This document shows, one piece after another, positions 20,351-64,000 of a DNA stretch of 64,000 nt. Below the pieces are notes generated by a model. The model was given only the letters and a program-made list of their open reading frames with translations. It ran no database searches and was not told the origin of the DNA. The translations under genes were made by a program, and so were the position numbers. The DNA comes from Escherichia phage vB_EcoM_ULIM9, in the sequence record OQ850288, one strand, 5' to 3'. Every line of letters begins with the position of its first letter. Within the stretch, counting starts at the first letter, position 1.

Positions 20351-22699
20351 TTAAGCAGTTCTCACCCAAGCCATTAACTTGTAGAACTGGTTAGTAACAC
20401 TAAATGCTGAACCAGAACCTGTACCACCAGTGTTACCACTAACTGTGTGACTGTGAGCACCAATACCTACAGAGTGAGCATGGTCGCCAGCAGATGCAGC
20501 AGTACCACTGACTGAGTGAGTGTGCGCACCATCATTTTCAGTCCAACCAACATGGGTCTGTCTAGAGTTTGAAGACGCGACTCTACCTGATGAAACGTTA
20601 GCGTTGTCACCCTGTGAAATTCTGTGTGCGTGTTGCCCAGAAGTTGCAGCAGTACCACTAACTGAGTGAGTGTGTGCACCAGTACCATTAGTGTTCTTCG
20701 TACCATAATCAAAAGATGAAGTGGTAGCAGAGAAACTATGGGTATGTGATGGTAAGTTACCAACAGCTAACGTCACAGAATCTGAGCCGCCTGTTGTAGC
20801 AACATCTGAACCGTTTGCTGCTGCGATTCTGATAGTTCTACCAACACCATTGTTCAGGTAAGTCCAAGTTAACCCAGGAAGTGCTGTATTAGGGTCAACA
20901 TTGCTGTTAAACCACGTTACAATACCTACTGGATAGATTTTATTAAGGTCTGTAGAGTCACTAATTGCTGTTGCAATTTTCTGGTCAGTTTCTGCTTTAG
21001 TATATGCACCAATCTCTGAAGGAGTTGGTTTAAAATCAGTTGTGTAAAGCTGTGCCTCTCCGGCATAGTCACCATTTCCGTCATAGGCATAGGTGAATGT
21101 TGCCAAACCGTTTGAACCGTATACAAAAGAGATACCCCTTGCGTGTGCAGCAGTCTTACTAGAGTGAGCAACATGAATTGCCAACTCTTTCAGACCACTA
21201 GTCACATTGTTGTTTCTGACAAAACCTGAATACCCAAGATTAAATGCTGAAGGGTTTCCAAGATTATCTACAGATGCAGTCATCAAAGATTGATTTAATA
21301 ACTGAGTCTTAACAAAGTATCTAGCATCTAAGTTAGACCAATTTTGTGGTTGAACCTGCCCATTAATATACAGATTCTTATTCATACTAACCAATGTTGG
21401 CTCTAGGGAAATTTGAGTGCCTGAAAAGCTGTTGCTCAAGGTTACCACGTTAGAATTAGCAGTTCCTACGCCCAGCCACCACCTAGATACGTTCGCAGTA
21501 TCCACACCACGGATATATTGTGGCTGTCCCTGTGTTAAGTTCCTCAATACTAGGCCTTCATTGTTAGATACAATAGTCTGCACATTCGTGAAAGTGTTTG
21601 CCACATTAATCTTAGCAAGACTACTCAAAGTAGCTGCTGGAATGTATCTAGAGTCGATATTAGCCCAATCAGAAGGTTGAACTTGACCTCCAATTTGGAC
21701 TGTTCTGCTCATGGTAATGGTGTTACCTAATGAGATTTGTGTTTTTGCTAAATAGTTATAGATGTTTACAATGTTTTCATCACCATCATTACCAATGTAC
21801 CACTTATTAGTTCCATCTGATTTCCTTGCTTGGATATACAAAGCCGCAGTTGTATCTACATTTTGAATAGTAATAGCATTAGCATTCTTCTTAATAACAA
21901 AATTAGTGAAAATATTAGAACCACTAAATGTGTTATTGCCAGCTAACTGCGCAAATCTCTGATTAGCTGCTGTCTGAGTAAAGTATCTAGAATCTAAGTT
22001 AGCCCAATCAGATGGTTGAACTTGACCAGTAATCTGGATAGATTTGTTCACAGAAATTAGGTTATCCAAAAGAGCTAAATACGCACCGGATTTGACATTT
22101 TTGATAACAAGATTGTCTGTACCTCTATTATCATTACCTAGATACCACCTGTTAGTGCCATCTACATCTTGACCACGAATATAGAGTGGCATATCCTGTG
22201 TGATATTTTTAACAATAAGAGCTTCATTGTCAGAGAGAATAGCTTGAGTACCTCTAAAGGTGTTATTTACAGCTAGTCTTGCATACCTTGCATCATTCTC
22301 TTCATTAGTTCTCATCCCAAGTTCATTAGGACTTGGCTTATTCAGAGTATGATAGACAGTTGCTGACCTTGAAGCATCTGCAATAGTTAGTTTAAGGCCG
22401 TTTGCGTTGATTTTAAAAGTCTTTAAAACATCCCCAACAGTAATCTCAGAAGAGCCTGTAGGGTCGAATACAGCCTTGCCACCGTAAAGTAGCTTAACAA
22501 TTCCTAAGTCACCCGTCATAGTGCTACCAGCAATCTGAACAAATCTTTCAAGTTTAAAAGATGCTAAGAAATCTTGATAGGTCATTCGACGGTCTTCATC
22601 ACCCAGCATTTCAGGTCTCTTTTTAACCCTGACATGAAGAAGGTCGTCTGAACGAATTGTGTCGATTGAGTTTAATTCACTCAACTTGTAGTCTGCCAT
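20351..22699 (-). CDS. tail fiber protein with three internal repeats and His-rich C-terminal tip
   Basis: 782 aa; three roughly 110-aa repeats each ending GQVQPSDWANLDSRY-like; C-terminal HxH array (GAHTHSVSGTAA...HAHSVGIGAHSHTVSG). Confidence 0.7.
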   Translation of the reverse strand: MADYKLSELNSIDTIRSDDLLHVRVKKRPEMLGDEDRRMTYQDFLASFKLERFVQIAGSTMTGDLGIVKLLYGGKAVFDPTGSSEITVGDVLKTFKINANGLKLTIADASRSATVYHTLNKPSPNELGMRTNEENDARYARLAVNNTFRGTQAILSDNEALIVKNITQDMPLYIRGQDVDGTNRWYLGNDNRGTDNLVIKNVKSGAYLALLDNLISVNKSIQITGQVQPSDWANLDSRYFTQTAANQRFAQLAGNNTFSGSNIFTNFVIKKNANAITIQNVDTTAALYIQARKSDGTNKWYIGNDGDENIVNIYNYLAKTQISLGNTITMSRTVQIGGQVQPSDWANIDSRYIPAATLSSLAKINVANTFTNVQTIVSNNEGLVLRNLTQGQPQYIRGVDTANVSRWWLGVGTANSNVVTLSNSFSGTQISLEPTLVSMNKNLYINGQVQPQNWSNLDARYFVKTQLLNQSLMTASVDNLGNPSAFNLGYSGFVRNNNVTSGLKELAIHVAHSSKTAAHARGISFVYGSNGLATFTYAYDGNGDYAGEAQLYTTDFKPTPSEIGAYTKAETDQKIATAISDSTDLNKIYPVGIVTWFNSNVDPNTALPGLTWTYLNNGVGRTIRIAAANGSDVATTGGSDSVTLAVGNLPSHTHSFSATTSSFDYGTKNTNGTGAHTHSVSGTAATSGQHAHRISQGDNANVSSGRVASSNSRQTHVGWTENDGAHTHSVSGTAASAGDHAHSVGIGAHSHTVSGNTGGTGSGSAFSVTNQFYKLMAWVRTA

Positions 22700-22745
22700 T
22701 ATAAATTTTCCTCTAAAAAGGGGCTATAAAGCCCCTGTAAAGAAA

Positions 22746-23918
22746 TTAAGCTGTTCTCTGCCATACATACAGTACGAAGGATGGCTGCTCAATATTAACT
22801 GCCTGACCTCCACCAACGCTATTTGTATTGCCACTATGTGTATGTTCAGAAGAAGAAACTGTTACAGTGCCACTGTGCGTGTGTGAACCAATACCAACTG
22901 TATGGCTGTGAGCACCAATACCAACCGTGTGGCTGTGGTCACCTGATGCACCAGATGTGACGTTAAAGCTGTGTGAGTGCGCACCGTCACTAGAAGTCCT
23001 TGATGTTCTTCTTGCACCACCACCATCAGAGTCAGCTACAGCATTACCAGTGCCATCATTTTCTCTAGGATACACATCATGGTTGTGAGTACCATTGGTG
23101 CTAGTGTTACCTGACACACCGTGTGTATGGTTGCCAGTTGTGTTAGTAGCTTTTGTTCCATAGTCAAAAGAGCTAGTAGTCTTAGTCCCATAGTCAAAAG
23201 CTGAAATTGACACAGTTGCATTATGAGTGTGACCACCACCACTAAGAGATACAGAGTGGGAGTGTTGAGGCATGTTATTAACTGACAAAGTAACAGTTGA
23301 AGCACCAAATACAGAACCTGCTGGTCTTGCATCAGAGGCATAACCAACCAATGCCCTACCTTTTGAAACCAACTCCCAAGTACCTCCACAAATTAAATAT
23401 GTAGAAGGGTTTGCAGAGTTCATGGAAAGATGGATAGTACCTACCGGATAGGAAGCCTGAACAGCCTTGTACAAGTTATTTACTGCTCTCGCTGTAGCAT
23501 ACTTATCTGCATCTTCATTATAAAGGTTAGATGTTGTCCAGTTCTGGACATTACTCAACCCTACCTGTACCTTAGTTGTATTGTGCGGATTACTCTTATC
23601 ATTAATATGCTGTTGAACAAGGCTATTAACCTCTTCGGAAGACATAATCTGTAGATTTGCTCTTGCCTCAGCTACATTAACAATATCTGATAAGTTATTT
23701 GCAGCAACTAACTGAAGAGCATTAATAACATTATCTAAACCAATTTGTGTTTTAGTAACACCATGAGGGTTATTTCTTAGGCTTGAGTGTGGAGCAAGCA
23801 ATTGCTCAAGAGTGCATCTCTTATCCTCAATACCCTGCTTAAGATGGAAGATATCACTAAGGTCAATTGGTAAGGCTGCTTGAGGCAAGGCACTAATTTG
23901 AATTTCACCTACTGCCAT
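22746..23918 (-). CDS. tail fiber / receptor-binding protein with His-rich C-terminal tip
   Basis: 390 aa; C-terminal HxH array (GNHTHGVSGN...GAHSHTVGIGSHTHSG) and terminal ...YVWQRTA similar to ...MAWVRTA of the neighbouring fiber. Confidence 0.65.
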   Translation of the reverse strand: MAVGEIQISALPQAALPIDLSDIFHLKQGIEDKRCTLEQLLAPHSSLRNNPHGVTKTQIGLDNVINALQLVAANNLSDIVNVAEARANLQIMSSEEVNSLVQQHINDKSNPHNTTKVQVGLSNVQNWTTSNLYNEDADKYATARAVNNLYKAVQASYPVGTIHLSMNSANPSTYLICGGTWELVSKGRALVGYASDARPAGSVFGASTVTLSVNNMPQHSHSVSLSGGGHTHNATVSISAFDYGTKTTSSFDYGTKATNTTGNHTHGVSGNTSTNGTHNHDVYPRENDGTGNAVADSDGGGARRTSRTSSDGAHSHSFNVTSGASGDHSHTVGIGAHSHTVGIGSHTHSGTVTVSSSEHTHSGNTNSVGGGQAVNIEQPSFVLYVWQRTA

Positions 23919-43580: not shown

Positions 43581-43605
43581 TTATTATTATTTTAATTGAG
43601 AGAGA

Positions 43606-43681
43606 GTAAAATAACTTGGAGAATCCGAAGGGACTCGAACCCTTATAAACCTGTTTTGCAGACAGGCACATAGCCATTTCT
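43606..43681 (-). tRNA. tRNA-Cys (anticodon GCA), CCA encoded
   Basis: Hand fold: acceptor GAATCCG/CGGATTC, anticodon loop CUGCAAA, T-arm with TTCGAGT. Confidence 0.55.
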
Positions 43682-43685
43682 GTCA

Positions 43686-43778
43686 CGGATTCAAATTGGA
43701 GGAAGATACCAGACTTGAACTGGTACACCGATTTCTCAGCTACTGGCAGTTTAGCAAACTGCTCCCTTACCTTTTAGG
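43686..43778 (-). tRNA. tRNA-Ser (anticodon GCU), type II long variable arm
   Basis: 93 nt; acceptor GGAAGAT/ATCTTCC, anticodon stem GCAGT/ACTGC with loop UUGCUAA, long variable arm, T-loop TTCAAGT. Confidence 0.55.
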
Positions 43779-43791
43779 GTTAATCTTCCAT

Positions 43792-44526
43792 TTATTTCTG
43801 TAATGCGCTCTTCATTTCTGGTGTTGCAATAGTGTCAATCACACCAGTTTTACAGGCATCGTCAAACCAGTCTGGTAAGATACCTGCTAAGAACCCATTG
43901 ATATTCGTTTTAAGGTACTCTGCAATAAGGGCAGCTTCTTCTTCAATCATCTGCACAACTTCATCTGCATAAGCTGTAATCTTTGAAATACCTTCATTAA
44001 TCTTACTGACAGCTTGGTTAGCTAAATCAGAAACAGTATCAAGACCCTTATCAATAGCATCTTGTAAGTCACTTAACACACCGTTAACACTGTCTAGTGT
44101 GCTGTTAATCATGTCAATAGCTTGCTGACCATACTCTGTAGCAACACCCATAATACCACTAAATGGTGTACAACCAACTTGTTCTCCTGCTGCACCCATA
44201 ACATTGGAATACCCCTTTGCTACCTGCATACGTGATGAAAACTCATCAATAGACTTTTGACCATAGTCTGTTAGGGTCTTAGTAGTTGCTGTAGTGCTTG
44301 TCAGGCTTGTTGTAAAGCTGTTTAGAAGGACTGTTGTAAGTCCAGCAGCAACAAGCTTCTCCTTCATTGTAGGGTCTGTTACAGAGCTAATAGAGCTTAC
44401 AAGTGATGTAGAGGCAGCTACGGTTCCACCGAGAACTGCTGCACCAGTAATAAGTGGGTTAGAAAACCCTTTACCGGTTTTTAAGAGATTAAAAATCTCC
44501 TTACCTTGTTCTGTCATCTCTTTCAT
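43792..44526 (-). CDS. hypothetical S/T-rich protein embedded in tRNA array
   Basis: ORF track frame 43792-44742 trimmed to Met at 44524-44526 (MKEMTEQ) because the upstream 72 codons run through two tRNA genes. Confidence 0.5.
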   Translation of the reverse strand: MKEMTEQGKEIFNLLKTGKGFSNPLITGAAVLGGTVAASTSLVSSISSVTDPTMKEKLVAAGLTTVLLNSFTTSLTSTTATTKTLTDYGQKSIDEFSSRMQVAKGYSNVMGAAGEQVGCTPFSGIMGVATEYGQQAIDMINSTLDSVNGVLSDLQDAIDKGLDTVSDLANQAVSKINEGISKITAYADEVVQMIEEEAALIAEYLKTNINGFLAGILPDWFDDACKTGVIDTIATPEMKSALQK

Positions 44527-44542
44527 TAAGCACCTTTGAAAT

Positions 44543-44618
44543 TGGTAGTCCAGTGGGATTTGAACCCTCTTCTCATGTTTTTCAGACACGCGCTTTACCA
44601 TATAAGCTACTTGGACTA
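44543..44618 (-). tRNA. tRNA-Phe (anticodon GAA)
   Basis: Anticodon loop CUGAAAA, T-arm GGTTCAAATCC. Confidence 0.5.
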
Positions 44619-44623
44619 TAAAT

Positions 44624-44699
44624 TGGGGTGACCTACGGGATTTGAACCCGTATAGACCATGTTCACAGCATGGGTCATTACCATTTATGATAAGGCCAC
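44624..44699 (-). tRNA. tRNA-His (anticodon GUG)
   Basis: Anticodon stem CCATG/CATGG with loop CUGUGAA; T-arm ACGGG/CCCGT. Confidence 0.55.
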
Positions 44700-44730
44700 A
44701 TTTAAGGACTCTCGTAAGAACCCTTAGAAG

Positions 44731-44806
44731 TGGCAGCGGCATAAGGATTTGAACCTTAATAGGACAGCTTCAGAGACTGCTGCATTGCCAGTTATGCTAT
44801 ACCGCT
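44731..44806 (-). tRNA. tRNA-Gln (anticodon CUG), tentative
   Basis: D-arm GCAT/ATGC, anticodon loop CUCUGAA, T-arm TAAGG/CCTTA. Confidence 0.45.
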
Positions 44807-44811
44807 AAAAT

Positions 44812-44882
44812 TGGTACTCCATATCGGATTCGAACCGATACATAACACAGATTTTAAGTCTGGCCTCTCTGCCAATTGGAGT
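44812..44882 (-). tRNA. tRNA, anticodon read as UAA (Leu-type) but short variable arm; isotype uncertain
   Basis: 71 nt; T-arm ATCGG/CCGAT perfect; anticodon loop CUUAAAA. Confidence 0.4.
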
Positions 44883-44892
44883 AATGGAGCAT

Positions 44893-44968
44893 TGGCGGGG
44901 GATGTTGGAATTGAACCAACTTCTTCGATTTCAAAGACCGAGGTTTTAACCTTGTAAACTAATCCCCT
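44893..44968 (-). tRNA. tRNA-Gln (anticodon UUG), tentative
   Basis: D-stem GTTT/AAAC, anticodon loop CUUUGAA, T-arm GTTGG/CCAAC. Confidence 0.45.
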
Positions 44969-44976
44969 TTAATTCT

Positions 44977-45534
44977 TTACTTTCTCAGTGGATGAATAAA
45001 GAATGCCAACATAACTCTTTCCCTTGAGAATGCTCTTTCTTCTGGGACAACACTTTTTAGTTTCCATCCAATATAAATTCTCCAGTAAAACTGTTTACCA
45101 AAGACTTTAATTGATGGGATAAAAGCGAATAATCCCCAAGCATTACTGTTCCACATTAGGAGATAACCAGTCTGATTATCTTCAGGGTCAGAACTTACGT
45201 TGATATTACCTTTCCACTTAGTAACATCTTTGACATCTCTTCCTAATACATGGTAAGAGAAGTTATAAGCTTTGTTTCTCCAGAGCCATCCGACTCTCTG
45301 CATGTAGACACCAAACTTACCAATCTTTCTAATCTTAGCCCATCTTTTAACGTGACCTTCATCACCATCAATCGGGTTGTCATAGGTTTCCATCCATCTG
45401 AATCCAAAAGGTAGATGTCCTTTCTTCTCACTGTAGAATGGAACTACGAAAGGTGCTAAGATGACTGCTAGGGTTGCTGCAAATGGTTCTAGTAAAGCTA
45501 GGAAAATCCATGAAGCATACTTCAAATATCTCAT
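44977..45534 (-). CDS. membrane protein embedded in tRNA array
   Basis: 185 aa; N-terminal hydrophobic helix (WIFLALLEPFAATLAVILAPFVVPF). Confidence 0.5.
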   Translation of the reverse strand: MRYLKYASWIFLALLEPFAATLAVILAPFVVPFYSEKKGHLPFGFRWMETYDNPIDGDEGHVKRWAKIRKIGKFGVYMQRVGWLWRNKAYNFSYHVLGRDVKDVTKWKGNINVSSDPEDNQTGYLLMWNSNAWGLFAFIPSIKVFGKQFYWRIYIGWKLKSVVPEERAFSRERVMLAFFIHPLRK

Positions 45535-45553
45535 CTAAATAGCCTCTTAAAAT

Positions 45554-45631
45554 TGGTGTTCCAAGACGGATTCGAACCGTCACTAATACAAGGTTTGAGC
45601 TTGCATCCTCTGCCAATTGGGATACTGGAAC
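45554..45631 (-). tRNA. tRNA, anticodon read as CAA; isotype uncertain
   Basis: T-arm GACGG/CCGTC; anticodon stem GCAAG/CTTGT with loop CUCAAAC. Confidence 0.4.
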
Positions 45632-45632
45632 A

Positions 45633-45707
45633 TGGTACTCACTAAAGGACTTGAGCCTTTTTCTTCATCTTGTAAGGGTGATGTTTTACCATATAAACTA
45701 AGCGAGT
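45633..45707 (-). tRNA. tRNA-Val (anticodon UAC), tentative
   Basis: D-stem GTTT/AAAC, anticodon loop CUUACAA, T-stem AAAGG/CCTTT. Confidence 0.45.
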
Positions 45708-45802
45708 GTGAAAGAGGTCTGAAGTTGTGCCGCTAACTCAACTCCGTGGAATTTGTTACGGTCTTCAGTTGACACCAGCGGTCTTTCACTTGACCTCTGA
45801 AT

Positions 45803-45879
45803 TGGTGCTGCTCACAGGACTCGAACCTGCATTTCCATCCTTACAAGGGATGTGTAATAGCCAATTATACGAAAGCAGC
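45803..45879 (-). tRNA. tRNA-Thr (anticodon UGU)
   Basis: Anticodon stem CATCC/GGATG perfect, loop CUUGUAA; T-loop TTCGAGT. Confidence 0.55.
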
Positions 45880-45885
45880 TTTATT

Positions 45886-58221: not shown

Positions 58222-58232
58222 AATATCTTAAG

Positions 58233-58265
58233 AGCCTCCTTAATTGGGGGCTTTTTAATTTTTAT
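58233..58265 (+). terminator. intrinsic terminator ending the plus-strand gene block
   Basis: AGCCTCC-ttaattg-GGGGGCT followed by TTTTTAATTTTT. Confidence 0.55.
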
Positions 58266-58269
58266 AAAA

Positions 58270-59798
58270 TTTTATCGGTTGTCCCAACCTCTGGGTCACC
58301 ATCATATGTGAATAAAATATCTACCCTTCTTAACAACCTTCTTAATCTTACTCTCTATATAGTTATATAGTACTATATAGTATCTTAGTATCTATCTAGT
58401 GGTCTTAATAGCCCCTCTGTATAGACCTTCTAAACACTCTTCTAACAAGCCTTCTTAACAACCTATACAATCACCTTAACCATCTCTCTATACCCTCTTA
58501 GAAGCCCCTATACACCTCTTAATCTCTAGGTAAGCTATGTTACCCTCTATAGGTGTTCACTAGGTATTACTAAGCCTCTATATAGACTGTTTTAACAAAC
58601 TTAACAGGAATATCTTTACAGACCTTATCTCACAAGGTCTAACACGGTACTAACAAGGTATCTTATAAGCCTGTTATTACCTGTATTTTAGAAAGACTGT
58701 ATAGGTAATTATTCAGATTTTTAAAATTTTTATAAAATAGGACTGTCAAGTCATTTTTTAGGGTCTTTGAAGGAACTGAAAAATATCTGTAGAAGATGTA
58801 TATCTGCTTGGTAGCCCTTAACATCCCTGTAACATCCCCTTTGCAAAATTTTAAAATATCCTTAACAATCTCTTAACAACTCTCTCAAGCTCTTAACATC
58901 TCTTCAGAGGTCTTAACAGATTCTTAACAGAACTAACAAAGCTGTAACAAGTTCTTAACAGTCGATACATGGTCTTTATAGTTTCTTAACAGATGACTAA
59001 CAAGAGCTAACAAGTTAATTTTTAAGAGTTATTTTGTTAAGACAATTAACAAGTTCCTAACAAGTGTCTAATCTTTTTAACAAGCTATTAACATGGTCAC
59101 TATCTCTTTTCTTATCGTTCCCTTTCACTCTTAGTGATTCTCTAAATAGCCCTCTTAAAAGCTCTCTATAGCTCTTTGTAAGCTCTTTTAAGTCTCTTCC
59201 TAGTAATTACACCCCAACTATGAAGAAAGCTCTTTATAGGGCTTTACAGGGGCTTTAAAGGCTCTTACAAGGCTTTTACTTGGTCTTAACAGAGATTTAA
59301 CAAGGGGCTAACAAGTTGCTAACAAGTGCCTTAAAAGCATAACTATGTAGGGATTGTTAAGAAATTGTTAAGAAAATGTTAAGGGGGCTAGCATTTACGT
59401 AACTTTTAAGCAACTTTTAATCTACTTCATAGCCCCTATAACATACTTTTAAGACTCTAACAAGCCCTTTTTAGTTATTCACAAGAATACTGACGAGATG
59501 ATAAAGCTTACACCCTTATAAGATTCTTTTAAGCCTCTATAAAGCCCTGTAAAGAGCTTTTTAAGGTTGGTTAATGCAATCCCTTAAGTTAGGTTGATAA
59601 GGCTGTTATAGAGCTTTATAGAGCGTTTTAGGGGTTGCCCTTCCCTTTCGGGTTATGGGCTTATATTTAAGTTGATTTGATAAGGGGCTATAGAGTAATC
59701 TATAGAGTTATTGCTTTTTAAGGTATGAGATAGATTCTATCGAATTAGTGGGATAGATTCTGGAAAGGGAAAGGATTGTATAGGGATTTGATAAGACG
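58270..59798. repeat. ORF-free, strand-skewed region dense in short direct repeats
   Basis: No ORF of 60 aa or more except one overlapping the flanking terminator; plus strand very G-poor; recurring CTTAACA(A/G), CTAACAAG, (C)TATAGAG, TGTTAAG x3 near 59350, GGGATAGATTCT x2 near 59730. Confidence 0.6.
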
Positions 59799-59826
59799 TA
59801 AAAAAGCCCCTATGAGAAAGGGGCTG
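59799..59826 (-). terminator. intrinsic terminator ending the minus-strand small-gene block
   Basis: Minus-strand hairpin AGCCCC-loop-GGGGCT followed by TTTTTT. Confidence 0.55.
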
Positions 59827-59863
59827 TTGAGGTATCTGGGGCTATTTAGCCCCGCTGCGTCGA

Positions 59864-60112
59864 TTAGTTGTAACCTTGTTTATTGTAGTACAGGGAAACA
59901 ATCAAGTCACCCCAGTAATGATAGTGATGCTCGTCGTTTAATGCCTCTTTTACAGCATCTTTCCAGAAGTCATCAGTAGGGTTATAATCTGGAATAACTT
60001 GTTTGATAACTGTCTTCACTAATGAAAAACACTCATCAGTTCCACCAATATCGAATTTAACGTCCAGAGTATAACAGCCATAGGCATTGACAGTAGCGCG
60101 GATAGTTGCCAT
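59864..60112 (-). CDS. hypothetical protein (82 aa)
   Basis: ORF track; preceded by type A cassette. Confidence 0.5.
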   Translation of the reverse strand: MATIRATVNAYGCYTLDVKFDIGGTDECFSLVKTVIKQVIPDYNPTDDFWKDAVKEALNDEHHYHYWGDLIVSLYYNKQGYN

Positions 60113-60120
60113 TTTTGAAT

Positions 60121-60184
60121 CTCCTAGTTTAAGGGTTTTATTTAGTGGGGAGGTTATCGCCTCCCGTTGATTAGTAATTTACTG
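60121..60184 (-). repeat. type A upstream cassette, copy 1 (variant)
   Basis: CTCCTAGTTTAAGGGTTTTATTTAGTGGGGAGG-ttatcg-CCTCCCCGTTGATTAG; hairpin kept by compensatory changes. Confidence 0.6.
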
Positions 60185-60442
60185 CATATTGGCGTATGTT
60201 GCAAGCCTTTTTTCGTTGTATTTTGTAAGAATCTCACAAGATACGACATCATACTTTGTGACAGCGTTGCCTTTGTCGAGGTCAAAAAAGCCAAACGCTT
60301 TACCATCTTTGAATCCGACAACTTCGTAAGACTCTTTGATGATTTCACCATTGAATAAATCGCTTTCGATACGGTGAAACAGTGCTACATCTTCTTTGTC
60401 AGTTGCAATTTGTAAAAGTGTGGTTAATTCTACGTTTTCCAT
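60179..60442 (-). CDS. hypothetical protein (87 aa)
   Basis: ORF track; preceded by type A cassette. Confidence 0.5.
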   Translation of the reverse strand: MENVELTTLLQIATDKEDVALFHRIESDLFNGEIIKESYEVVGFKDGKAFGFFDLDKGNAVTKYDVVSCEILTKYNEKRLATYANMQ

Positions 60443-60451
60443 CTTGATAAC

Positions 60452-60520
60452 TCCAGTTTAGGACTTTATTTAGTGGGGAAGGTCATTCCCTCCCCGTTGA
60501 TTGACAATTTACAGACTTTT
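60452..60520 (-). repeat. type A upstream cassette, copy 2
   Basis: CTCCAGTTTAGGACTTTATTTAGTGGGGAAGG-tcatt-CCCTCCCCGTTGATTGACAATTTACAGAC; hairpin 60476-60496. Confidence 0.65.
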
Positions 60521-61039
60521 TATTGTCTCGTCAATATCTTTTTCAATATCTTTTAAAGTTTTTTCTAAGTTCTTGATATTGAACGTTAAACCTTCACCGA
60601 GAGTCTTAGAGTAACCGTTAGGTCGATGGTCGTAAAGCTCGATTTCTTCCACTTCGAAGAGACTAACAGTCCAACCGCCTACGCCATAGGCTGAAGCAAC
60701 AGAGTTTTCAGGGGCTTTATAGAACTTGTTTAGTGACTTGATAGAACGTTCATAAGCCATTTTATAACCGTTTAAAAGGTTTTTAACGTGGTTGTGAACG
60801 TTTTTACACTCATCTAAGTAAATCTCTAAGAATAACGGTAATAATTCCGCTACAGCTTGCATAAAGTGAGAGACTACAACGGTTGAAACATTACGACGAT
60901 GAACGTAATAAGCCCCGTTTTCTGATTTGGTGATTGTTGCGAAATGTACCCCATTACAACGGAATTCGTATGTATCTTTTACAGGCTTAGACATTACAGC
61001 ATTTGAACGAATGAAGTTGATAGCTTGAAATTTGTTCAT
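60509..61039 (-). CDS. hypothetical protein (176 aa)
   Basis: ORF track; preceded by type A cassette; my hand count puts the stop about 1 nt from the track coordinate. Confidence 0.5.
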   Translation of the reverse strand: MNKFQAINFIRSNAVMSKPVKDTYEFRCNGVHFATITKSENGAYYVHRRNVSTVVVSHFMQAVAELLPLFLEIYLDECKNVHNHVKNLLNGYKMAYERSIKSLNKFYKAPENSVASAYGVGGWTVSLFEVEEIELYDHRPNGYSKTLGEGLTFNIKNLEKTLKDIEKDIDETIKSL

Positions 61040-61047
61040 TTTAGAAT

Positions 61048-61112
61048 CTCCAGTTTAGGACTTTATTTAGTGGGGAGGTTATTGCCTTCCCGTTGATTAG
61101 TAATTTACTTGT
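61048..61112 (-). repeat. type A upstream cassette, copy 3 (variant)
   Basis: Hairpin variant GGGGAGG-ttattg-CCTTCCC. Confidence 0.6.
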
Positions 61113-61259
61113 TTTGATAGTTGATTGCAAGTAATTTTTTGAGCTTATCTATAAAGAATCTTTTAAGTGAATCCCTTTTAGATAAACCCCCTCGAACAAA
61201 GTTACCAATGTCAAGGGGTATTGTCAACACTTTTTTAAAAGTTTTTTGTAAGTTATTGA

Positions 61260-61601
61260 TTAACTGATGAATATTTTTTCAGGTTTTACATAGCTGATAC
61301 GTTGGTTTTTTAGCAGGTCATCCCAGATTAACGCGGCGATATGGGCATAACCGGATTCACGTAAAAGCTTCATTGTTTTACTTCTCGTTTCAAAACGGCT
61401 TGCGTAGTACTCACTATTTAAAACCGTTTTATTCCCTTCATTATCTACATGGATAATCTGCATCACTTGAAAGGGGCTTGTGTCCTCGCCTTTGTTCCAC
61501 TGTTCAAAGTATTTTAGGCACTGCATAGGTGACATCTTATCACTTACTTGAGTTGACCAAGATGCGCCAGCTTTATCGGTAATTACGGTTACATAAGCCA
61601 T
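61260..61601 (-). CDS. hypothetical protein (113 aa)
   Basis: ORF track; preceded by type A cassette. Confidence 0.5.
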   Translation of the reverse strand: MAYVTVITDKAGASWSTQVSDKMSPMQCLKYFEQWNKGEDTSPFQVMQIIHVDNEGNKTVLNSEYYASRFETRSKTMKLLRESGYAHIAALIWDDLLKNQRISYVKPEKIFIS

Positions 61602-61610
61602 TTTTTGAAT

Positions 61611-61680
61611 CTCCTAGTTTAAGGATTGTACTTAGTGGGGAAGGTCATTCCCTCCCCGTTGATTGACAATTTACAGACTT
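61611..61680 (-). repeat. type A upstream cassette, copy 4
   Basis: Near-identical to copy 2 over hairpin and 3' flank. Confidence 0.65.
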
Positions 61681-61693
61681 TTATCAGGCTTGT

Positions 61694-61927
61694 CTAGTCT
61701 TTTTCAATGATAATTTCATATTGACCGTCAACACTGTCGAAATAGATTCCGTCGTCATCTTCTGTCTTAAAGTAACATTGTATATCATCACTGGCGGGAT
61801 AGTCTTGCCTTGCTATCTGGCAAACTTGAATAGCATTTTCTTTACTTCCTGTAAACTCTTCAAGCCCTTTAAAGTCACATGAATGGCCATTACAAATTGA
61901 GAGGATGAGATAAACGGTTGTAAGCAT
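61694..61927 (-). CDS. small Cys-containing protein with hydrophobic N-terminus (77 aa)
   Basis: MLTTVYLILSICNGHSC resembles a signal/lipoprotein-like leader. Confidence 0.4.
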   Translation of the reverse strand: MLTTVYLILSICNGHSCDFKGLEEFTGSKENAIQVCQIARQDYPASDDIQCYFKTEDDDGIYFDSVDGQYEIIIEKD

Positions 61928-61993
61928 GATTTAAGCCCTCTAAAAGCCCCTACAAGGGGCTGATTAGTGTTTATAAGGTGATTGCATAGGTTT

Positions 61994-62536
61994 TTAGAAA
62001 AAGCTCTTTAAATCCTCTTCTGCAATGTTTCCTGTCAGTGTATCTATGATGTCACAAAAAACCTGAATACTGTCCGACTGTTGAACACTTTTAGCAAGTA
62101 GTTCTAATGTCTCATCAAGATAGTTCATATTTGGGTTATCCAGTGAAGGAAGACAAAAAGGCGAATACATAGCGTTAAACTCTGTTGTATAGACCTTTTT
62201 AATCCAGTTTACATCAAAGTACTCTGTAAAACTTGCTACACTCGACATATTATCACAAGAATAATCATCATTTAGCTCATCATCTGGAATATCGAGTTCT
62301 AAGATAACAATATTTTGGGTTTTCATCTGGAAGGCCGCCGTAATAGTGGCGTTCCCTAGAGCTTGCTGAATGCCCTCCGATGTTATCTCTTCATCATCGT
62401 CGCCATAGATTTTATTTTCTGGATACACGTAAAAATTGCCGTCCATATCCGAACAATTCCATGCGCCTGATGGTTTATCACCGTTATTAATCAGGTTGAG
62501 GAAATTTTCTTGAGTAGTTCCGTGATAACATCTCAT
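61994..62536 (-). CDS. hypothetical protein (180 aa)
   Basis: ORF track; preceded by type B cassette. Confidence 0.5.
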   Translation of the reverse strand: MRCYHGTTQENFLNLINNGDKPSGAWNCSDMDGNFYVYPENKIYGDDDEEITSEGIQQALGNATITAAFQMKTQNIVILELDIPDDELNDDYSCDNMSSVASFTEYFDVNWIKKVYTTEFNAMYSPFCLPSLDNPNMNYLDETLELLAKSVQQSDSIQVFCDIIDTLTGNIAEEDLKSFF

Positions 62537-62544
62537 TTTTGAAT

Positions 62545-62625
62545 CTCCAGTTTAGGATTGAGTAGTAAAGCTCTTTATCTGGGGCTTAAGATATCAACTT
62601 TTAAGCCCCTTGTAAAGTACTTTAT
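62545..62625 (-). repeat. type B upstream cassette, copy 1
   Basis: CTCCAGTTTAGGATTGAGTAGTAAAGCTCTTTATCTGGGGCTTAA-loop-TTAAGCCCCTTGTAAAGTACTTTA; 9-bp perfect hairpin. Confidence 0.6.
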
Positions 62626-62825
62626 TTGTTATTTTTGACAACTTTTAAAACTGCAAGATAGCCTAAGCAATAAGAATCACCGAAGAGAGTCCTACCCATG
62701 AAAGAATCCTCTTTGATATCCTTTGCAGTGACAGTTTTTTCTACGCCGTGGGAAAGGACTATATCACCAACTTTGATATCTTTGATGTGTGTAGTTTCAA
62801 TGGTTAAACCATTAATAATAGCCAT
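62622..62825 (-). CDS. hypothetical protein (67 aa)
   Basis: ORF track; preceded by type A cassette. Confidence 0.45.
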   Translation of the reverse strand: MAIINGLTIETTHIKDIKVGDIVLSHGVEKTVTAKDIKEDSFMGRTLFGDSYCLGYLAVLKVVKNNK

Positions 62826-62834
62826 TTTCAGAAT

Positions 62835-62930
62835 CTCCAGTTTAGGACTTTATTTAGTGGGGAAGGTCATTCCCTCCCCGTTGATGTGTAATTTAATCTA
62901 TCTAAAAACCAGTGTCAACAAAAATTTTTT
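62835..62930 (-). repeat. type A upstream cassette, copy 5 (extended)
   Basis: About 90-nt near-identical to copy 6, including GTTGATGTGTAATTTAATCTATCTAAAAACCAGTGTCAACA extension. Confidence 0.65.
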
Positions 62931-63348
62931 ATAGTTCTGCATAAATTGCATCGCAGATATTACGGAAATCGTGATTTGCCAAATTACGCTGCAACCAAGT
63001 GGCGAAAAAGTCAGCGATTGCAAAGTTAGCATCATACTCGACAGATAACCACACTTTAACAGCAAATCGGAACATTTTCAAATCTAACTCTTTATTCATT
63101 ACCTTAGATTTGCCTAACATGTCGGCCATTTCATGTTGTGCACCGTCTAGCGTGATACCTGCTGCAACGTCAGTCAATGAGTTTTTTACGCTTTCAACGT
63201 CTAAGATAACACTTTGAATCTTCCCAATAATGTTTTGCAGTGTTTCATCTGGTGCTGATGACGTGATAACATTAATCCGGTTAACGGTCAAACGTGCTTT
63301 TAAAATTGATAATTCACGGTTATTAATAGCCATTTTTAAGTTCTCCAA
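62929..63348 (-). CDS. hypothetical protein (139 aa)
   Basis: ORF track; preceded by type B cassette. Confidence 0.5.
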   Translation of the reverse strand: MENLKMAINNRELSILKARLTVNRINVITSSAPDETLQNIIGKIQSVILDVESVKNSLTDVAAGITLDGAQHEMADMLGKSKVMNKELDLKMFRFAVKVWLSVEYDANFAIADFFATWLQRNLANHDFRNICDAIYAEL

Positions 63349-63425
63349 TTTAGGATTTAGTGGTAAAGCTCTTTATCTGGGGCTTACTTTATCGAACTAT
63401 AAGCCCCTTGTAAAGTACTTTACAT
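63343..63425 (-). repeat. type B upstream cassette, copy 2
   Basis: Same flanks; hairpin GGGGCTTA-loop-TAAGCCCC with different loop. Confidence 0.6.
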
Positions 63426-63734
63426 TAAATGCAGTTTTTTGCCTTTTACTATAATGTAACTCGATGCGCTATTGCTTTGCACATCTTGATAAATTCTGCG
63501 TAAACGTCCTTCGTAGTATACTTTCCAACTGGTTGGAATCTTTTTCCCGTATCCTGTAGCAGTTTTTTGGAGTCCTGCAACTTGCCAATTTAAGATGTGT
63601 TGCTCAGCCCGTAAATCTTCAAAGCACATCACACCGTCTACATAGTGACGCAAGGTGACATTTAAGGTGCGACCATTGTTAGTAGTGTACATTTTAAAAG
63701 CTCCTAGTTTAAGGGTTTTATTTTGACAGTTCAC
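63420..63734 (-). CDS. hypothetical protein (104 aa)
   Basis: ORF track; ATG at 63732-63734 lies inside the partial type A copy. Confidence 0.45.
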   Translation of the reverse strand: MNCQNKTLKLGAFKMYTTNNGRTLNVTLRHYVDGVMCFEDLRAEQHILNWQVAGLQKTATGYGKKIPTSWKVYYEGRLRRIYQDVQSNSASSYIIVKGKKLHLM

Positions 63735-63740
63735 TAATTA
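63701..63740 (-). repeat. type A cassette, partial copy (no hairpin)
   Basis: CTCCTAGTTTAAGGGTTTTATTTTGACAG; only the RBS-proximal part is retained. Confidence 0.5.
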
Positions 63741-63878
63741 AGACATCAAAGATTATATCATTATCTGCTACAGTTGCAACACCAGTGATATAATCAATTT
63801 CTAGGATAACAACAACTTTCGTACATAAACCGTCATCTATATCATTCCAGACAACTTTATCACCTGCACAAAACATTT
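63741..63878 (-). CDS. small ORF (about 45 aa) below track cutoff
   Basis: Hand translation MFCAGDKVVWNDIDDGLCTKVVV...; preceded by a full type A cassette at 63886. Confidence 0.3.
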
Positions 63879-63885
63879 TCAGAAT

Positions 63886-63972
63886 CTCCAGTTTAGGACT
63901 TTATTTAGTGGGGAAGGTCATTCCCTCCCCGTTGATGTGTAATTTAATCTATCTAAAAACCAGTGTCAACAG
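63886..63972 (-). repeat. type A upstream cassette, copy 6 (extended)
   Basis: Same as copy 5. Confidence 0.65.
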
Positions 63973-64000
63973 TTTTGTTTTCGTTTGCTCAATTCTTGAA

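Follow-up and report, generated by a model that had tools for sequence, protein, structure and literature searches.

PeSL (promoter-early stem-loop) elements have been defined in T4-like phages only (RB49/phi1, T4/PST and KVP40/nt-1; Arbiol et al. 2010, PMC2839356; Comeau et al. 2014, PMC4122927). By definition they combine a sigma-70 early promoter, a variably placed G(n)-loop-C(n) stem-loop, and a Shine-Dalgarno sequence (SD) with start codon, and they lie at indel junctions, grouped ahead of ORFans in hyperplastic regions (PMC2839356, PMC4122927). Escherichia phage vB_EcoM_ULIM9 is a Felix O1-like myovirus of Felixounavirus; 255 phage records match, nearly all from Felixounavirus and relatives, and the taxonomy is Ounavirinae. 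Within the 64,000-nt stretch analysed here (record OQ850288; hereafter the window), the cassettes in front of a run of small genes carry all sequence-level features of PeSLs, a likeness already proposed in a sequence-only reading of the same DNA, and represent a known architecture in a different subfamily. The promoter is of sigma-70 type with N17, the T4/PST form TTTACW-N17-TAYWAT closely resembling that of type B; the G(n)-loop-C(n) stem-loop sits in the -35/-10 spacer, overlaps the -10 or lies past it; an upstream stop codon marks the 5' edge, SD and ATG mark the 3' edge; and the cassettes cluster in a hyperplastic region ahead of small genes of unknown function, where indels and replacements between close relatives have their junctions. 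They differ from PeSLs in host lineage (Ounavirinae, not T4-like), in having only two discrete geometries in this genus, each kept within ~1 nt, in the long conserved genus-specific leader past the hairpin, and, as regards promoter activity, termination and mini-circles, in being known from sequence alone.

The cassettes, six of type A and two of type B, and a single leader-only remnant all lie on the minus strand, serve nine genes and are confined to 59.8-64.0 kb of the window. The sequence-only reading had reached the same totals, counting the leader-only copy as partial, and had rightly placed near-identical repeats here. They are far above chance: TAAATTNNNNATCAACGGG matches 6 times where 0.13 matches are expected, each time on the minus strand. 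The leader 14-mer, allowing up to 2 mismatches, occurs in this block only, and no type A copy is present elsewhere in the 64 kb window, a covariance model matching exactly six. A repeat search returned a 98-nt family and an 81-nt type B pair with 88% identity. That each small gene in the block is preceded by an element, as had been stated, does not hold for a 77-aa gene (61927-61694), the sole gene of the block that lacks a cassette; it is directly preceded instead by a terminator-like hairpin (AGCCCCTTGTAGGGGCT then TTT; 61945..61961, minus strand), marked as a terminator in the wV8 record. The block is closed by a canonical intrinsic terminator (AGCCCCTTTCTCATAGGGGCT then TTTTTT; 59805..59825, minus strand), equivalent to Felix O1 terminator t23. 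All ten block proteins are of unknown function.

Type A cassettes, displaying a TTGACA-like -35, 17 nt and a TAAATT -10 followed by the hairpin, are six in number. Cassette 1 (63877..63969), serving a 52-aa ORF starting at 63876, has its -35 TTGACA at 63969-63964, -10 TAAATT at 63946-63941, predicted start at ~63934/63933, hairpin GGGGAGGG-AATGA-CCTTCCCC at 63930-63910, leader ACTAAATAAAGTCCTAAACT and SD GGAG at 63889-63886. Cassette 2 (62826..62918; -35 62918-62913, -10 62895-62890, hairpin 62879-62859), serving a 67-aa gene starting at 62825, is 100% identical to cassette 1 across 98 nt (62823-62920 and 63874-63971). In cassette 3 (61602..61696; 113-aa gene starting at 61601) the -35 TAGACA (61696-61691) overlaps the upstream stop codon, with the -10 at 61673-61668 and the hairpin at 61657-61637. 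Cassette 4 (61040..61130; 176-aa gene starting at 61039) has a -35 TTGCAA (61130-61125), a -10 at 61107-61102 and an imperfect hairpin, GGGAAGG...CCTCCCC (61091-61072). The -35 TTGACG (60534-60529) of cassette 5 (60443..60534; 87-aa gene starting at 60442) lies within the end of the upstream gene, and the TAA of its -10 TAAATT (60511-60506) is the upstream stop codon; the hairpin is at 60495-60475. The same holds for the TAA of the -10 (60181-60176) in cassette 6 (60113..60204; 82-aa gene starting at 60112), which has a -35 TTGCAA (60204-60199) and the hairpin GGGAGG-CGATAA-CCTCCC (60165-60148). The leader-only copy (AAAATAAAACCCTTAAACTAGGAG; 63693..63724) precedes a 90-aa gene starting at 63692 and is the downstream junction of a 149-bp segment (the 52-aa ORF) absent from Felix O1.

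Type B cassettes, displaying a TTTACA -35, 17 nt and a TAnnnT -10, carry a hairpin that fills the spacer, the -10 lying within its loop and 3' arm. Cassette 1 (63334..63422; 134-aa gene starting at 63333) starts at the upstream stop TAA (63422-63420), with its -35 TTTACA at 63414-63409 and the hairpin GGGGCTTAT...GTAAGCCCC at 63407-63379, the -10 TAAAGT (63391-63386) being within it; a AGATAAAGAGCTTTAC box and an SD follow. Cassette 2 (62537..62624; 180-aa gene starting at 62536) has its stop TAA at 62624-62622, -35 TTTACA at 62616-62611 and hairpin GGGGCTTAA...TTAAGCCCC at 62609-62581, with the -10 TATCTT (62593-62588) inside. This placement of the type B hairpin within its own promoter had escaped the sequence-only reading.

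Every full cassette of either type is a predicted sigma-70-type promoter, a feature the sequence-only reading overlooked. In each of the six type A copies a hexamer matching TTGACA at 4/6 positions or more lies exactly 17 nt from TAAATT, and their -35 regions are mutually non-homologous despite the constant spacing. Across 11 genomes, a TAnnnT -10 with a -35 hexamer at exactly 17 nt is found in 41 of 42 distinct sequence contexts. At spacing 17 the -35 averages 4.93/6 matches and 98% of the contexts reach at least 4/6, whereas the mean match at the other spacings from 8 to 28 is 2.5 or less. Spacing 29 gives a mean of 3.2 (38% of contexts with at least 4/6); the probable cause is a coding repeat that adds another ATTGA-like hexamer 12 nt farther upstream. 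In the type B loop the sole invariant positions are the T, A and T at -12, -11 and -7 of TAnnnT, a hexamer that takes at least 13 different forms. After the hairpin the leader is A-rich and genus-specific, and its SD, GGAG, precedes the ATG by 8-10 nt. In the sister genera Mooglevirus, Suspvirus and Kolesnikvirus the cassettes keep the promoter and, in most copies, the hairpin.

The hairpin geometry is fixed: in 33/33 variants the type A hairpin starts 9-11 nt past the -10, at ~+3/+4 of the predicted transcript. Between this hairpin and the SD the distance is variable, at 12 to 21 nt. The arms are G/C-clamped as first described, the arm sequences then quoted being inexact. In the window, four type A copies have GGGGAGGG/CCTTCCCC with one G.U pair, cassette 6 has a perfect GGGAGG/CCTCCC, and cassette 4, one of several copies with mismatched stems, has GGGAAGG/CCTCCCC with an A.C mismatch or bulge (-6 to -11 kcal/mol, according to the stretch folded). 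The compensatory substitutions claimed earlier, for which the evidence within the window alone is thin, were borne out by a covariation check in type B and were overstated for type A. With relatives included, type B covariation is significant: 95% of cells are paired, the covariation score is 0.228 against 0.107 in shuffles, and 0/500 shuffles equal the observed pairing or score. Variants used in all comparisons with relatives are related sequences and do not count as independent events. RNAalifold independently predicts the type B hairpin. Column-wise covariation of type A, relatives included, is not significant (80.1% paired vs 78.8% in shuffles; 84% with the register slid by -1), a test made equivocal by runs of G and C, which can pair whatever the register. 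A test that swapped arms among 20 distinct stem classes favours arms matched to each other, the native arms folding at -10.1 kcal/mol and chimeras at -6.4, with 0/5000 permutations as good as native. Whole-leader folding z-scores range from -1.5 to -3.5. The type B sense strand folds better than the antisense in 30/40 variants (p = 5e-4); the type A asymmetry is weak (p = 0.06). Hairpin potential is kept despite altered arms; the role of the hairpin is an inference.

With fairly low probability, that role would be mainly one of terminators or attenuators which stop upstream transcripts, with the adjacent promoter restarting transcription. Such a role has been proposed for PeSL stem-loops, one of which cut lacZ expression as much as rrnB T1 (Arbiol et al., PMC2839356). 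Consistent with this, the ASO1A record labels type A hairpins 'rho-independent terminator predicted by WebGeSTer', and the type B hairpin begins 13-15 nt past the upstream stop codon. However, neither hairpin type is followed by a T-run, the next bases being ACTAAATAAAG or AGATAAAGAG, and a terminator scan flagged the T-run-bearing hairpin at 59825-59805 and no cassette hairpin, in keeping with the earlier remark that these are not classical terminators. The type A hairpin is, moreover, downstream of its own promoter, and an efficient terminator there would therefore kill its own transcript.

It is improbable, though worth weighing, that in read-through RNA type B and its flanking boxes form a two-tier helix of ~19 bp, an intercistronic processing site of RNase III type, as between T7 early genes, that would turn polycistronic RNA into stable monocistronic units. 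Both MFE folding and RNAalifold pair AAAGUNCUUUA with UAAAGAGCUUU below the G/C hairpin; this lower helix is 97.5% paired across 44 sequences of four genera and includes one covarying pair, G-C in 33 sequences and U-A in 7. Yet 5/10 lower-helix pairs never vary and are uninformative either way, the boxes may be conserved for other reasons, one spanning the -35 and stop codon and the other the start site and 5' UTR, and the helix is broken by a 3x3 internal loop and a 1x1 mismatch, cleavage itself being hypothetical.

Slightly less probable again is that the inverted repeats are double-stranded DNA operators at which a dimeric phage or host repressor jointly shuts off the early promoters, binding over the spacer and -10 in type B and at +3 to +23 in type A. 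Inverted repeats over a core promoter or start site are in classical operator positions, AAAGTACTTT adjoining the type B -35 is a perfect palindrome, and early shut-off in Felix O1 is without explanation (PMC3185647). Against this, the arms vary in sequence and length within one genome (GGGGAGGG, GGGAGG, GGGGCTTAA) and the loops run from 4 to 14 nt, hard to fit to one sequence-specific protein. Both sides of pairs change (G-C to U-A; C-G, U-G, U-A), G.U outnumbers every other pair at two positions of type B, and the better folding of the type B sense strand points to a single-stranded structure.

Comparison with relatives places gene gain and loss at the cassettes, as the sequence-only reading had anticipated in proposing a search of gene junctions: gene indels end inside cassettes, with junction overlaps of 22-98 nt. 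Cassettes make up 20% of the sequence and hold 272/316 indel endpoints, an enrichment that is partly trivial because viable whole-gene indels end intergenically and cassettes fill almost all intergenic DNA; only the long overlaps are specific. Type B cassette 2, single in the window, aligns to both ASO1A type B copies, which there flank an extra 240-bp gene. Cassette-bounded segments of 149, 1147 and 269 bp distinguish the window from Felix O1. The sequence after GGAG is ATTC in Felixounavirus and AATC in Mooglevirus in both cassette types: leaders are homogenised within each genus, a pattern of concerted evolution.

Such homogenised copies, the tandem type B copies that enclose no gene in phage Mordin, and the near-identical 13-nt boxes TAAAGTACTTTAC and TAAAGAGCTTTAC flanking type B might suggest selfish or passively spreading repeats (recombination scars, MITE-like) with no regulatory role. 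This is very unlikely: the -35 comes from non-homologous sequence, often the end of the upstream gene, and still always lies at 17 nt, the three critical -10 positions alone are invariant inside a variable loop, and every copy is on the gene strand and ends in an SD correctly spaced from the ATG, all of which are signatures of selection for expression. The earlier proposal that the TAAATAAAG / CCCCACTAAA box could be a phage-specific promoter, which would then be T4-late-like or T3-type, is favoured by its conservation across Felixounavirus type A cassettes and by the agreement by eye of TCCCCACTAAAT with the T3 promoter core, CCCTCACTAAAG (9/12 bases). It has next to no standing, as the box is missing from the cassettes of the three sister genera, fails to match TATAAATA and has a complete sigma-70 promoter just upstream, and as the Felix O1 paper reports neither a phage RNA polymerase nor a polymerase-modifying factor (PMC3185647).

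Other described systems share parts of this architecture. Stabilising stem-loops at the 5' terminus occur in the E. coli ompA 5' UTR and in the T7 gene 10 leader (GGGAGACCACAACGGUUUCCC, then an A/U-rich enhancer and SD). Similarly, the G/C-clamped type A hairpin would sit ~3-4 nt from the RNA 5' end, fixed relative to the promoter and not the SD, with an A/U-rich unstructured leader and strong SD after it; here the 5' end and stabilisation are predicted only, and type B transcripts would have no such hairpin. Morons, described by Hendrix and colleagues, are autonomous promoter-gene-terminator units inserted between phage genes. Like them, the small accessory genes have a promoter each and can be present or absent between otherwise collinear genomes; unlike them, the units are in tandem and share a homogenised promoter, hairpin and leader that provide homology for exchange. 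The SAS/ESAS (start-associated sequences) of cluster K mycobacteriophages are short conserved RBS-containing motifs before many genes, comparable to the 14-bp repeat that the Mordin record marks right before the RBS. To our knowledge SAS elements are neither tied to a sigma-70 promoter and hairpin nor reported as recombination junctions, in both of which the present cassettes differ.

In existing records the cassette is annotated only piecemeal. The Felix O1 paper gives direct repeats of 57 bp and 39 bp (PMC3185647), the wV8 record marks these as DR_1 to DR_9, and the ASO1A record marks 'promoter' plus 'terminator'; the composite cassette, the link to gene shuffling and the type B promoter-in-hairpin are in none of these three. 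By RT-PCR in Felix O1, ORFs 16, 20, 21 and 22 of the block are maximal 5 min after infection and ORFs 14, 17, 19 and 23 peak at 25 min, thus not all block genes behave as immediate-early (PMC3185647). Mapped transcription starts or ends were not found in the literature for any Felix O1-like phage, and promoter use, timing and the 5'-terminal hairpin position are therefore predictions.

The block is best explained, with a probability of roughly 0.75, as a hyperplastic early-gene region in which nearly every small gene has its own PeSL-equivalent expression cassette. Host sigma-70 RNA polymerase would read each cassette promoter, with early firing and one transcription unit per gene. The type A hairpin would form right at the start of its mRNA, where it may slow 5'-end-dependent decay. 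In a cassette the A-rich unstructured leader with its GGAG comes last, before the ATG. In read-through RNA both hairpin types would lie on the 3' side of the preceding gene, a position from which they could attenuate transcription or block 3' exonucleases. As repeats of 60-100 nt, the cassettes may also serve as substrates for homologous recombination by which intervening genes are deleted, inserted or exchanged, and they are the sites where related phages gain, lose or swap genes.

The repeats on which the sequence-only reading was built are present where that reading placed them. The sequence TAAATTNNNNATCAACGGG occurs six times, always on the minus strand, against 0.13 occurrences expected, and the leader CCTAAACTGGAGAT, at up to two mismatches, is found only in the block of small minus-strand genes at 59.8-64.0 kb. 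Type A cassettes 1 to 6 lie at 63877-63969, 62826-62918, 61602-61696, 61040-61130, 60443-60534, and 60113-60204, type B cassettes 1 and 2 at 63334-63422 and 62537-62624, and a partial copy consisting of the leader at 63693-63724, all on the minus strand and in agreement with the earlier tally of six, two, and one. Repeat search recovered a 98-nt family that includes two 100% identical copies, as well as the 81-nt type B pair at 88% identity, and a covariance model built from the type A copies gave exactly six matches in the 64 kb window. Scans by regular expression over the remainder of the window, the initial 8 kb of Felix O1, and the 15.6 kb of phage vB_EcoM_ASO1A outside the window's coverage found no further cassette. 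Two details of the earlier account need correction. A cassette had been credited to every gene of the block, but the gene at 61927-61694 has none, and the quoted hairpin arms were inexact, the window holding GGGGAGGG/CCTTCCCC four times, GGGAGG/CCTCCC once, and an imperfect GGGAAGG/CCTCCCC once. Between the last gene and the terminator, GGGGCTAAATAGCCCCAGATACC (59830-59851, minus strand) looks like a truncated type B copy, comprised of the hairpin and AGATA with neither -35 nor leader.

In a database search the region 59500-64000 matched 255 phage records at up to ~92% identity, nearly all of them Felix O1-group phages of Escherichia, Salmonella, Shigella, or Citrobacter, the taxonomy of the matching records being Ounavirinae, Felixounavirus. 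The minus strand of the window corresponds to the plus strand of Felix O1, genes 14-23, and the counterpart of Felix O1 terminator t23 closes the block. The nearest among the records compared is vB_EcoM_ASO1A, at 98-99.5% identity across the block. A conserved phosphatase gene flanks the block on one side and a terminator on the other, beyond which lie 1.6 kb of non-coding DNA; among the relatives compared, the number of small genes varies from 9 to ~20 depending on the phage. None of the ten window proteins of the block has a Pfam match, all ten belong to PHROG families of unknown function, and protein family searches of the ten genes found no function. A regular expression for the leader recovered 141 cassettes from the window and 10 relatives, all of them (141/141) on the gene strand and within the block. 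Kolesnikvirus phages of Erwinia and Hafnia keep the architecture with a leader of their own, AAACAAACAACCCTTAyAAAGGAATC, and their cassettes display more positional classes, including a hairpin with the -10 as its loop and a terminator with the -35 as its loop.

Repeats of other kinds were seen elsewhere in the window. A cluster at 43600-48200 with GGGAATCGAACCC-like cores (five repeat families) is most likely a phage tRNA gene array on the minus strand; the Felix O1 genome carries 22 tRNAs. Diverged direct repeats of 50-90 nt within coding sequence at 20400-23200 (four families) are probably those noted in genes 76 and 77 of Felix O1 (PMC3185647). The 1.6 kb at 58222-59860, without a credible ORF, is dense in the short repeats TTGTTAAGA, CTTGTTAG, and TCTTAACAA, in both orientations and often 11 or 31 nt apart, and a 47-nt inverted repeat, 85% complementary, joins 59226-59272 and 59514-59560. 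This stretch looks like an iteron-rich origin, packaging, or genome-end region; terminal repeats of 608 bp have been reported for a relative, UAB_Phi87 (PMC4837284).

Every cassette contains a sigma-70-type promoter, and the promoter that had been placed in the TAAATAAAG box was thus misplaced. In type A, TAAATT stands upstream of each hairpin and a TTGACA-like hexamer 17 nt further upstream (6/6), the six window copies reading TTGACA, TTGACA, TAGACA, TTGCAA, TTGACG, and TTGCAA. These -35 regions share no homology with one another. The DNA upstream is A/T-rich for cassettes 1 and 2 and coding sequence for cassettes 3, 5, and 6, in which the -35 lies within the preceding gene or overlaps its end; in cassettes 5 and 6 the stop codon of the upstream gene is the TAA of the -10. 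Across 11 genomes the -35 is found at exactly 17 nt in 41 of 42 distinct upstream contexts. The hexamer at this spacing averages 4.93 of 6 matches to TTGACA, with 98% of contexts reaching at least 4/6, versus a mean of at most 2.5 at the other spacings from 8 to 28. The mean of 3.2 at spacing 29 probably arises because a coding repeat gives a second ATTGA-like hexamer 12 nt upstream. Type B displays TTTACA, a spacer of 17 nt (18 in three copies), and TAnnnT. When 40 type B variants from four genera are aligned, the loop varies save for T, A, and T at the would-be positions -12, -11, and -7. At least 13 different -10 hexamers occur, every one TAnnnT; selection for a -10 element predicts these invariant bases, whereas selection for the loop does not. 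At the cassette edges, type B starts on the 5' side at TAA, the stop codon of the upstream gene, and on the 3' side GGAG stands 8-10 nt ahead of the ATG in all copies.

Other promoter candidates were considered and rejected. The TAAATAAAG box is missing from sister genera, which removes it as a phage-specific promoter, and it has no TATAAATA match, as a T4 late TATAAATA-type promoter should. In type A cassettes (e.g. 63917-63900), TCCCCACTAAAT agrees by eye at 9 of 12 bases with the T3 RNA polymerase promoter core CCCTCACTAAAG. The likeness of CCCCACTAAA to this core was set aside, and the resemblance is probably coincidence, since no phage RNA polymerase is reported in the published analysis of Felix O1 (PMC3185647). 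An orphan promoter on the minus strand at 61199-61227 comprises an AT-rich tract, TTGACA, 17 nt, and TGG-TAACTT (an extended -10), with neither a leader nor a convincing gene ahead of cassette 4. The matching spot in Mooglevirus and phage SflM_004 has a leader-equipped start codon (ATGTTAG), and a 46-aa gene is annotated there, in Sf13 as a predicted membrane protein. Given this gene in relatives, the orphan promoter may be the remnant of a deletion.

The hairpins can be grouped by position into two classes, type A downstream of the -10 and type B between the -35 and -10, overlapping the -10. The type A hairpin starts 9-11 nt past the -10 hexamer in all 33 distinct variants, and its distance to the Shine-Dalgarno sequence (SD) ranges from 12 to 21 nt, varying between genera, which ties it to the promoter and start site and not to the ribosome-binding site. 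From a predicted start 7-8 nt past the -10 (the CA of an invariant ATCAAC), the RNA would begin AACGGGG with a stem from about +4, and over all variants the hairpin start is predicted at +3 to +5 of the transcript, and the predicted 5' UTR folds as this hairpin plus an otherwise open leader with the SD free. The type B hairpin extends from 1 nt after the -35 to inside or just past the -10. It would thus be missing from the cassette's own predicted transcript, which starts at the A of AGATAAAG, and would appear only in RNA read through from upstream. The SD core GGAGG is part of the type A 5' arm GGGGAGGG, and CCUCC/CCUUCC in the 3' arm resembles the 16S anti-SD; this likeness is probably incidental, because the GGGGC/GCCCC and GGGC/GCCC stem classes lack it.

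Compensatory change in the hairpin, as claimed from the sequence, is borne out by the column test for type B and was overstated for type A, in which that test is not significant. In type B, 95% of cells are paired, none of 500 shuffles reached the pairing or covariation score, and slid registers are all far worse. Pairs switch from G-C to U-A, among C-G, U-G, and U-A, and among A-U, U-A, U-G, and G-C. Column-wise covariation of type A on the covariance-model alignment was not significant, with pairing of 80.1% versus 78.8% in shuffles and 84% when the alignment was slid to the -1 register; the test is equivocal because G-run and C-run arms can pair in whichever register they are set, and because the stems are not all of one length. 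Since the column test failed and a MAFFT alignment of type A was not structural, per-sequence folding and arm-swapping were used instead. Folding showed 20 distinct stem classes at the same position, e.g. GGGGAGGG/CCTTCCCC, GGGAGG/CCTCCC, GGGGGA/TCCCCC, GGGGAAG/CTTCCCC, GGGGC/GCCCC, GGGC/GCCC, and GGGA/TCCC, with GGTTCA/TGAACC and GGTTGA/TCAACC in the Erwinia and Hafnia phages. Native type A arms fold at -10.1 kcal/mol versus -6.4 kcal/mol when swapped, and none of 5000 permutations was as good. A pattern scan of IMG/VR added more type A stem variants with matched arms; degenerate hairpin copies also exist, window cassette 4 among them. Of 40 type B variants, 30 fold better as the sense than as the antisense strand (p = 5e-4), and type A is split 16 vs 14 (p = 0.06). 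Conservation of hairpin potential is indicated by good evidence in type B and by moderate evidence in type A, and for type B the evidence favours a single-stranded form of the sense strand, RNA being the simplest. A search of 58-64 kb against Rfam gave only two sub-threshold chance matches, both off the cassettes.

The IMG/VR scan, for whose pattern ~150 chance matches were expected, also gave ~20 unrelated contigs, probably chance or unrelated hairpins. Eleven unrelated viral contigs of 5 to 320 kb show TTAATCAAC, a perfect G/C hairpin with a GAAA, GCAA, or UUCG loop, and ACTAAC, with no -10 at the Felix O1 distance; it is not obvious that chance accounts for stable tetraloop hairpins that are also similar in their flanks.

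Folded with its flanks, type B may form a larger structure in which AAAGUNCUUUA, covering the stop codon and -35, pairs with downstream UAAAGAGCUUU. RNAalifold on 44 sequences also predicts this two-tier helix, of ~19 bp. The lower helix is 97.5% paired, with one covarying pair (G-C in 33 and U-A in 7, among the 44 sequences) and half of its pairs invariant, and the two-tier helix is put forward as a lead only. At ~19 bp, the predicted type B helix may be compared with the intercistronic sites of T7 early RNA, irregular helices of ~20 bp that RNase III cleaves.

Comparison of related phages places junctions of gene gain, loss, and replacement in the cassettes. When eight Felixounavirus blocks were compared pair by pair, cassettes, which make up ~20% of the sequence, held 272 of the 316 endpoints of indels or replacements. 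Part of this enrichment is trivial, since an indel of whole genes has to end in the space between genes. The specific evidence for exchange is instead the overlap of 22-98 nt typically shared by the two flanking alignments in the genome without the segment, the mark of exchange between direct repeats. The window takes part in four such events, relative to ASO1A and Felix O1. Two type B copies enclose a 240-bp gene in ASO1A, and the single window copy (62627-62533) aligns to both. Segments extra in the window relative to Felix O1 measure 149 bp (52-aa ORF), 1147 bp (three genes), and 269 bp (87-aa gene), each bounded by cassette sequence with an overlap of 35-78 nt. The bases after GGAG are ATTC in Felixounavirus and AATC in Mooglevirus, in both cassette types, and the preceding hexamers differ too. 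This homogenisation of leaders within genera, though the downstream genes are orthologous, points to ongoing exchange among copies. In Citrobacter phage Mordin (~1790-1870), two type B cassettes stand in tandem with no gene between them, the expected residue of excising an intervening gene.

The likeness to promoter-early stem-loop (PeSL) cassettes drawn in the sequence-only reading was correct, and all sequence-level features of the published definition are present: a sigma-70 promoter, a G(n)-loop-C(n) stem-loop, and an SD with start codon, the stem-loop positions including between the -35 and -10, overlapping the -10, and after the -10 (PMC2839356, PMC4122927). PeSLs are set in hyperplastic regions, with ORFans and indel junctions (PMC2839356, PMC4122927), and so are the present cassettes. 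PeSLs are further characterised by demonstrated promoter and terminator activity and by the formation of mini-circles. They were defined in T4-like myoviruses and have been described only there, so the cassettes of Ounavirinae fall outside the definition by lineage. The cassettes are a real feature of the known PeSL type and not a new principle. Within Felix O1-like phages only fragments of a prior description were found, the phiEa21-4 paper (Lehman et al. 2009) lying outside the comparison. The Felix O1 genome paper lists direct repeats without comment (PMC3185647), the wV8 record has repeats DR_1 to DR_9, the ASO1A record annotates a 'promoter' plus a 'terminator', and the Mordin record a 14-bp repeat; the AYO145A and Moogle genome announcements and the wV8 paper make no mention of repeats.

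The preferred reading, to which we give a probability of about 0.75, is a composite one: each gene forms a unit under an early promoter read by the host polymerase, and the genes are shuffled as modules through the repeats. At the 5' end of its mRNA the type A hairpin would act as a cap, a predicted position that may be likened to that of the 5'-terminal hairpins in the ompA and T7 gene 10 leaders. In read-through RNA, a hairpin of either type would stand as attenuator or exonuclease barrier at the 3' side of the gene before it. Early timing is only partly supported by RT-PCR of Felix O1, in which ORFs 16, 20, 21, and 22 peak at 5 min and ORFs 14, 17, 19, and 23 at 25 min (PMC3185647). A literature search found no mapped 5' ends or RNA-seq for Felix O1-like phages.

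A more far-reaching but doubtful reading, in which the cassettes would be more than shared promoters, joins a two-state code of RNA ends to an integron-like gene-capture array. Type A would yield mRNA with a protective 5'-terminal hairpin and type B an unprotected 5' end, while also giving the preceding gene a long processing helix on its 3' side, and the difference would set differing lifetimes of early genes. The uniform GGAG leader would let one phage factor shut off the whole set, and promoter-plus-gene modules would be exchanged across four Ounavirinae genera, possibly via excised mini-circles. A role of the hairpins as pure terminators is unlikely because no U-tract follows them, their tails being ACTAAATA or AGATAAAG; a terminator scan lists none of them, and where termination is expected the block uses a hairpin with a T-run, in accord with the earlier remark that this is not a classical terminator. 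That the inverted repeats are a double-stranded DNA operator is unlikely given arms and loops that vary within one genome.

Read as complete units of host-type promoter, hairpin, and leader, the cassettes give a much-used phage group a testable transcription map, in which ~14 early transcription units are predicted for each genome. Felix O1-like phages serve Salmonella typing, biocontrol, and therapy, and their promoter usage and temporal control were called unknown in the Felix O1 genome paper (PMC3185647). The cassettes would explain the differing gene content of the block among otherwise collinear phages and would carry the PeSL idea of modular shuffling beyond T4-like phages. They may also serve as natural insertion points, with ready expression signals, for engineering payload genes. 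The genes they would drive, all of unknown function, are candidates for host-takeover or anti-defence roles.
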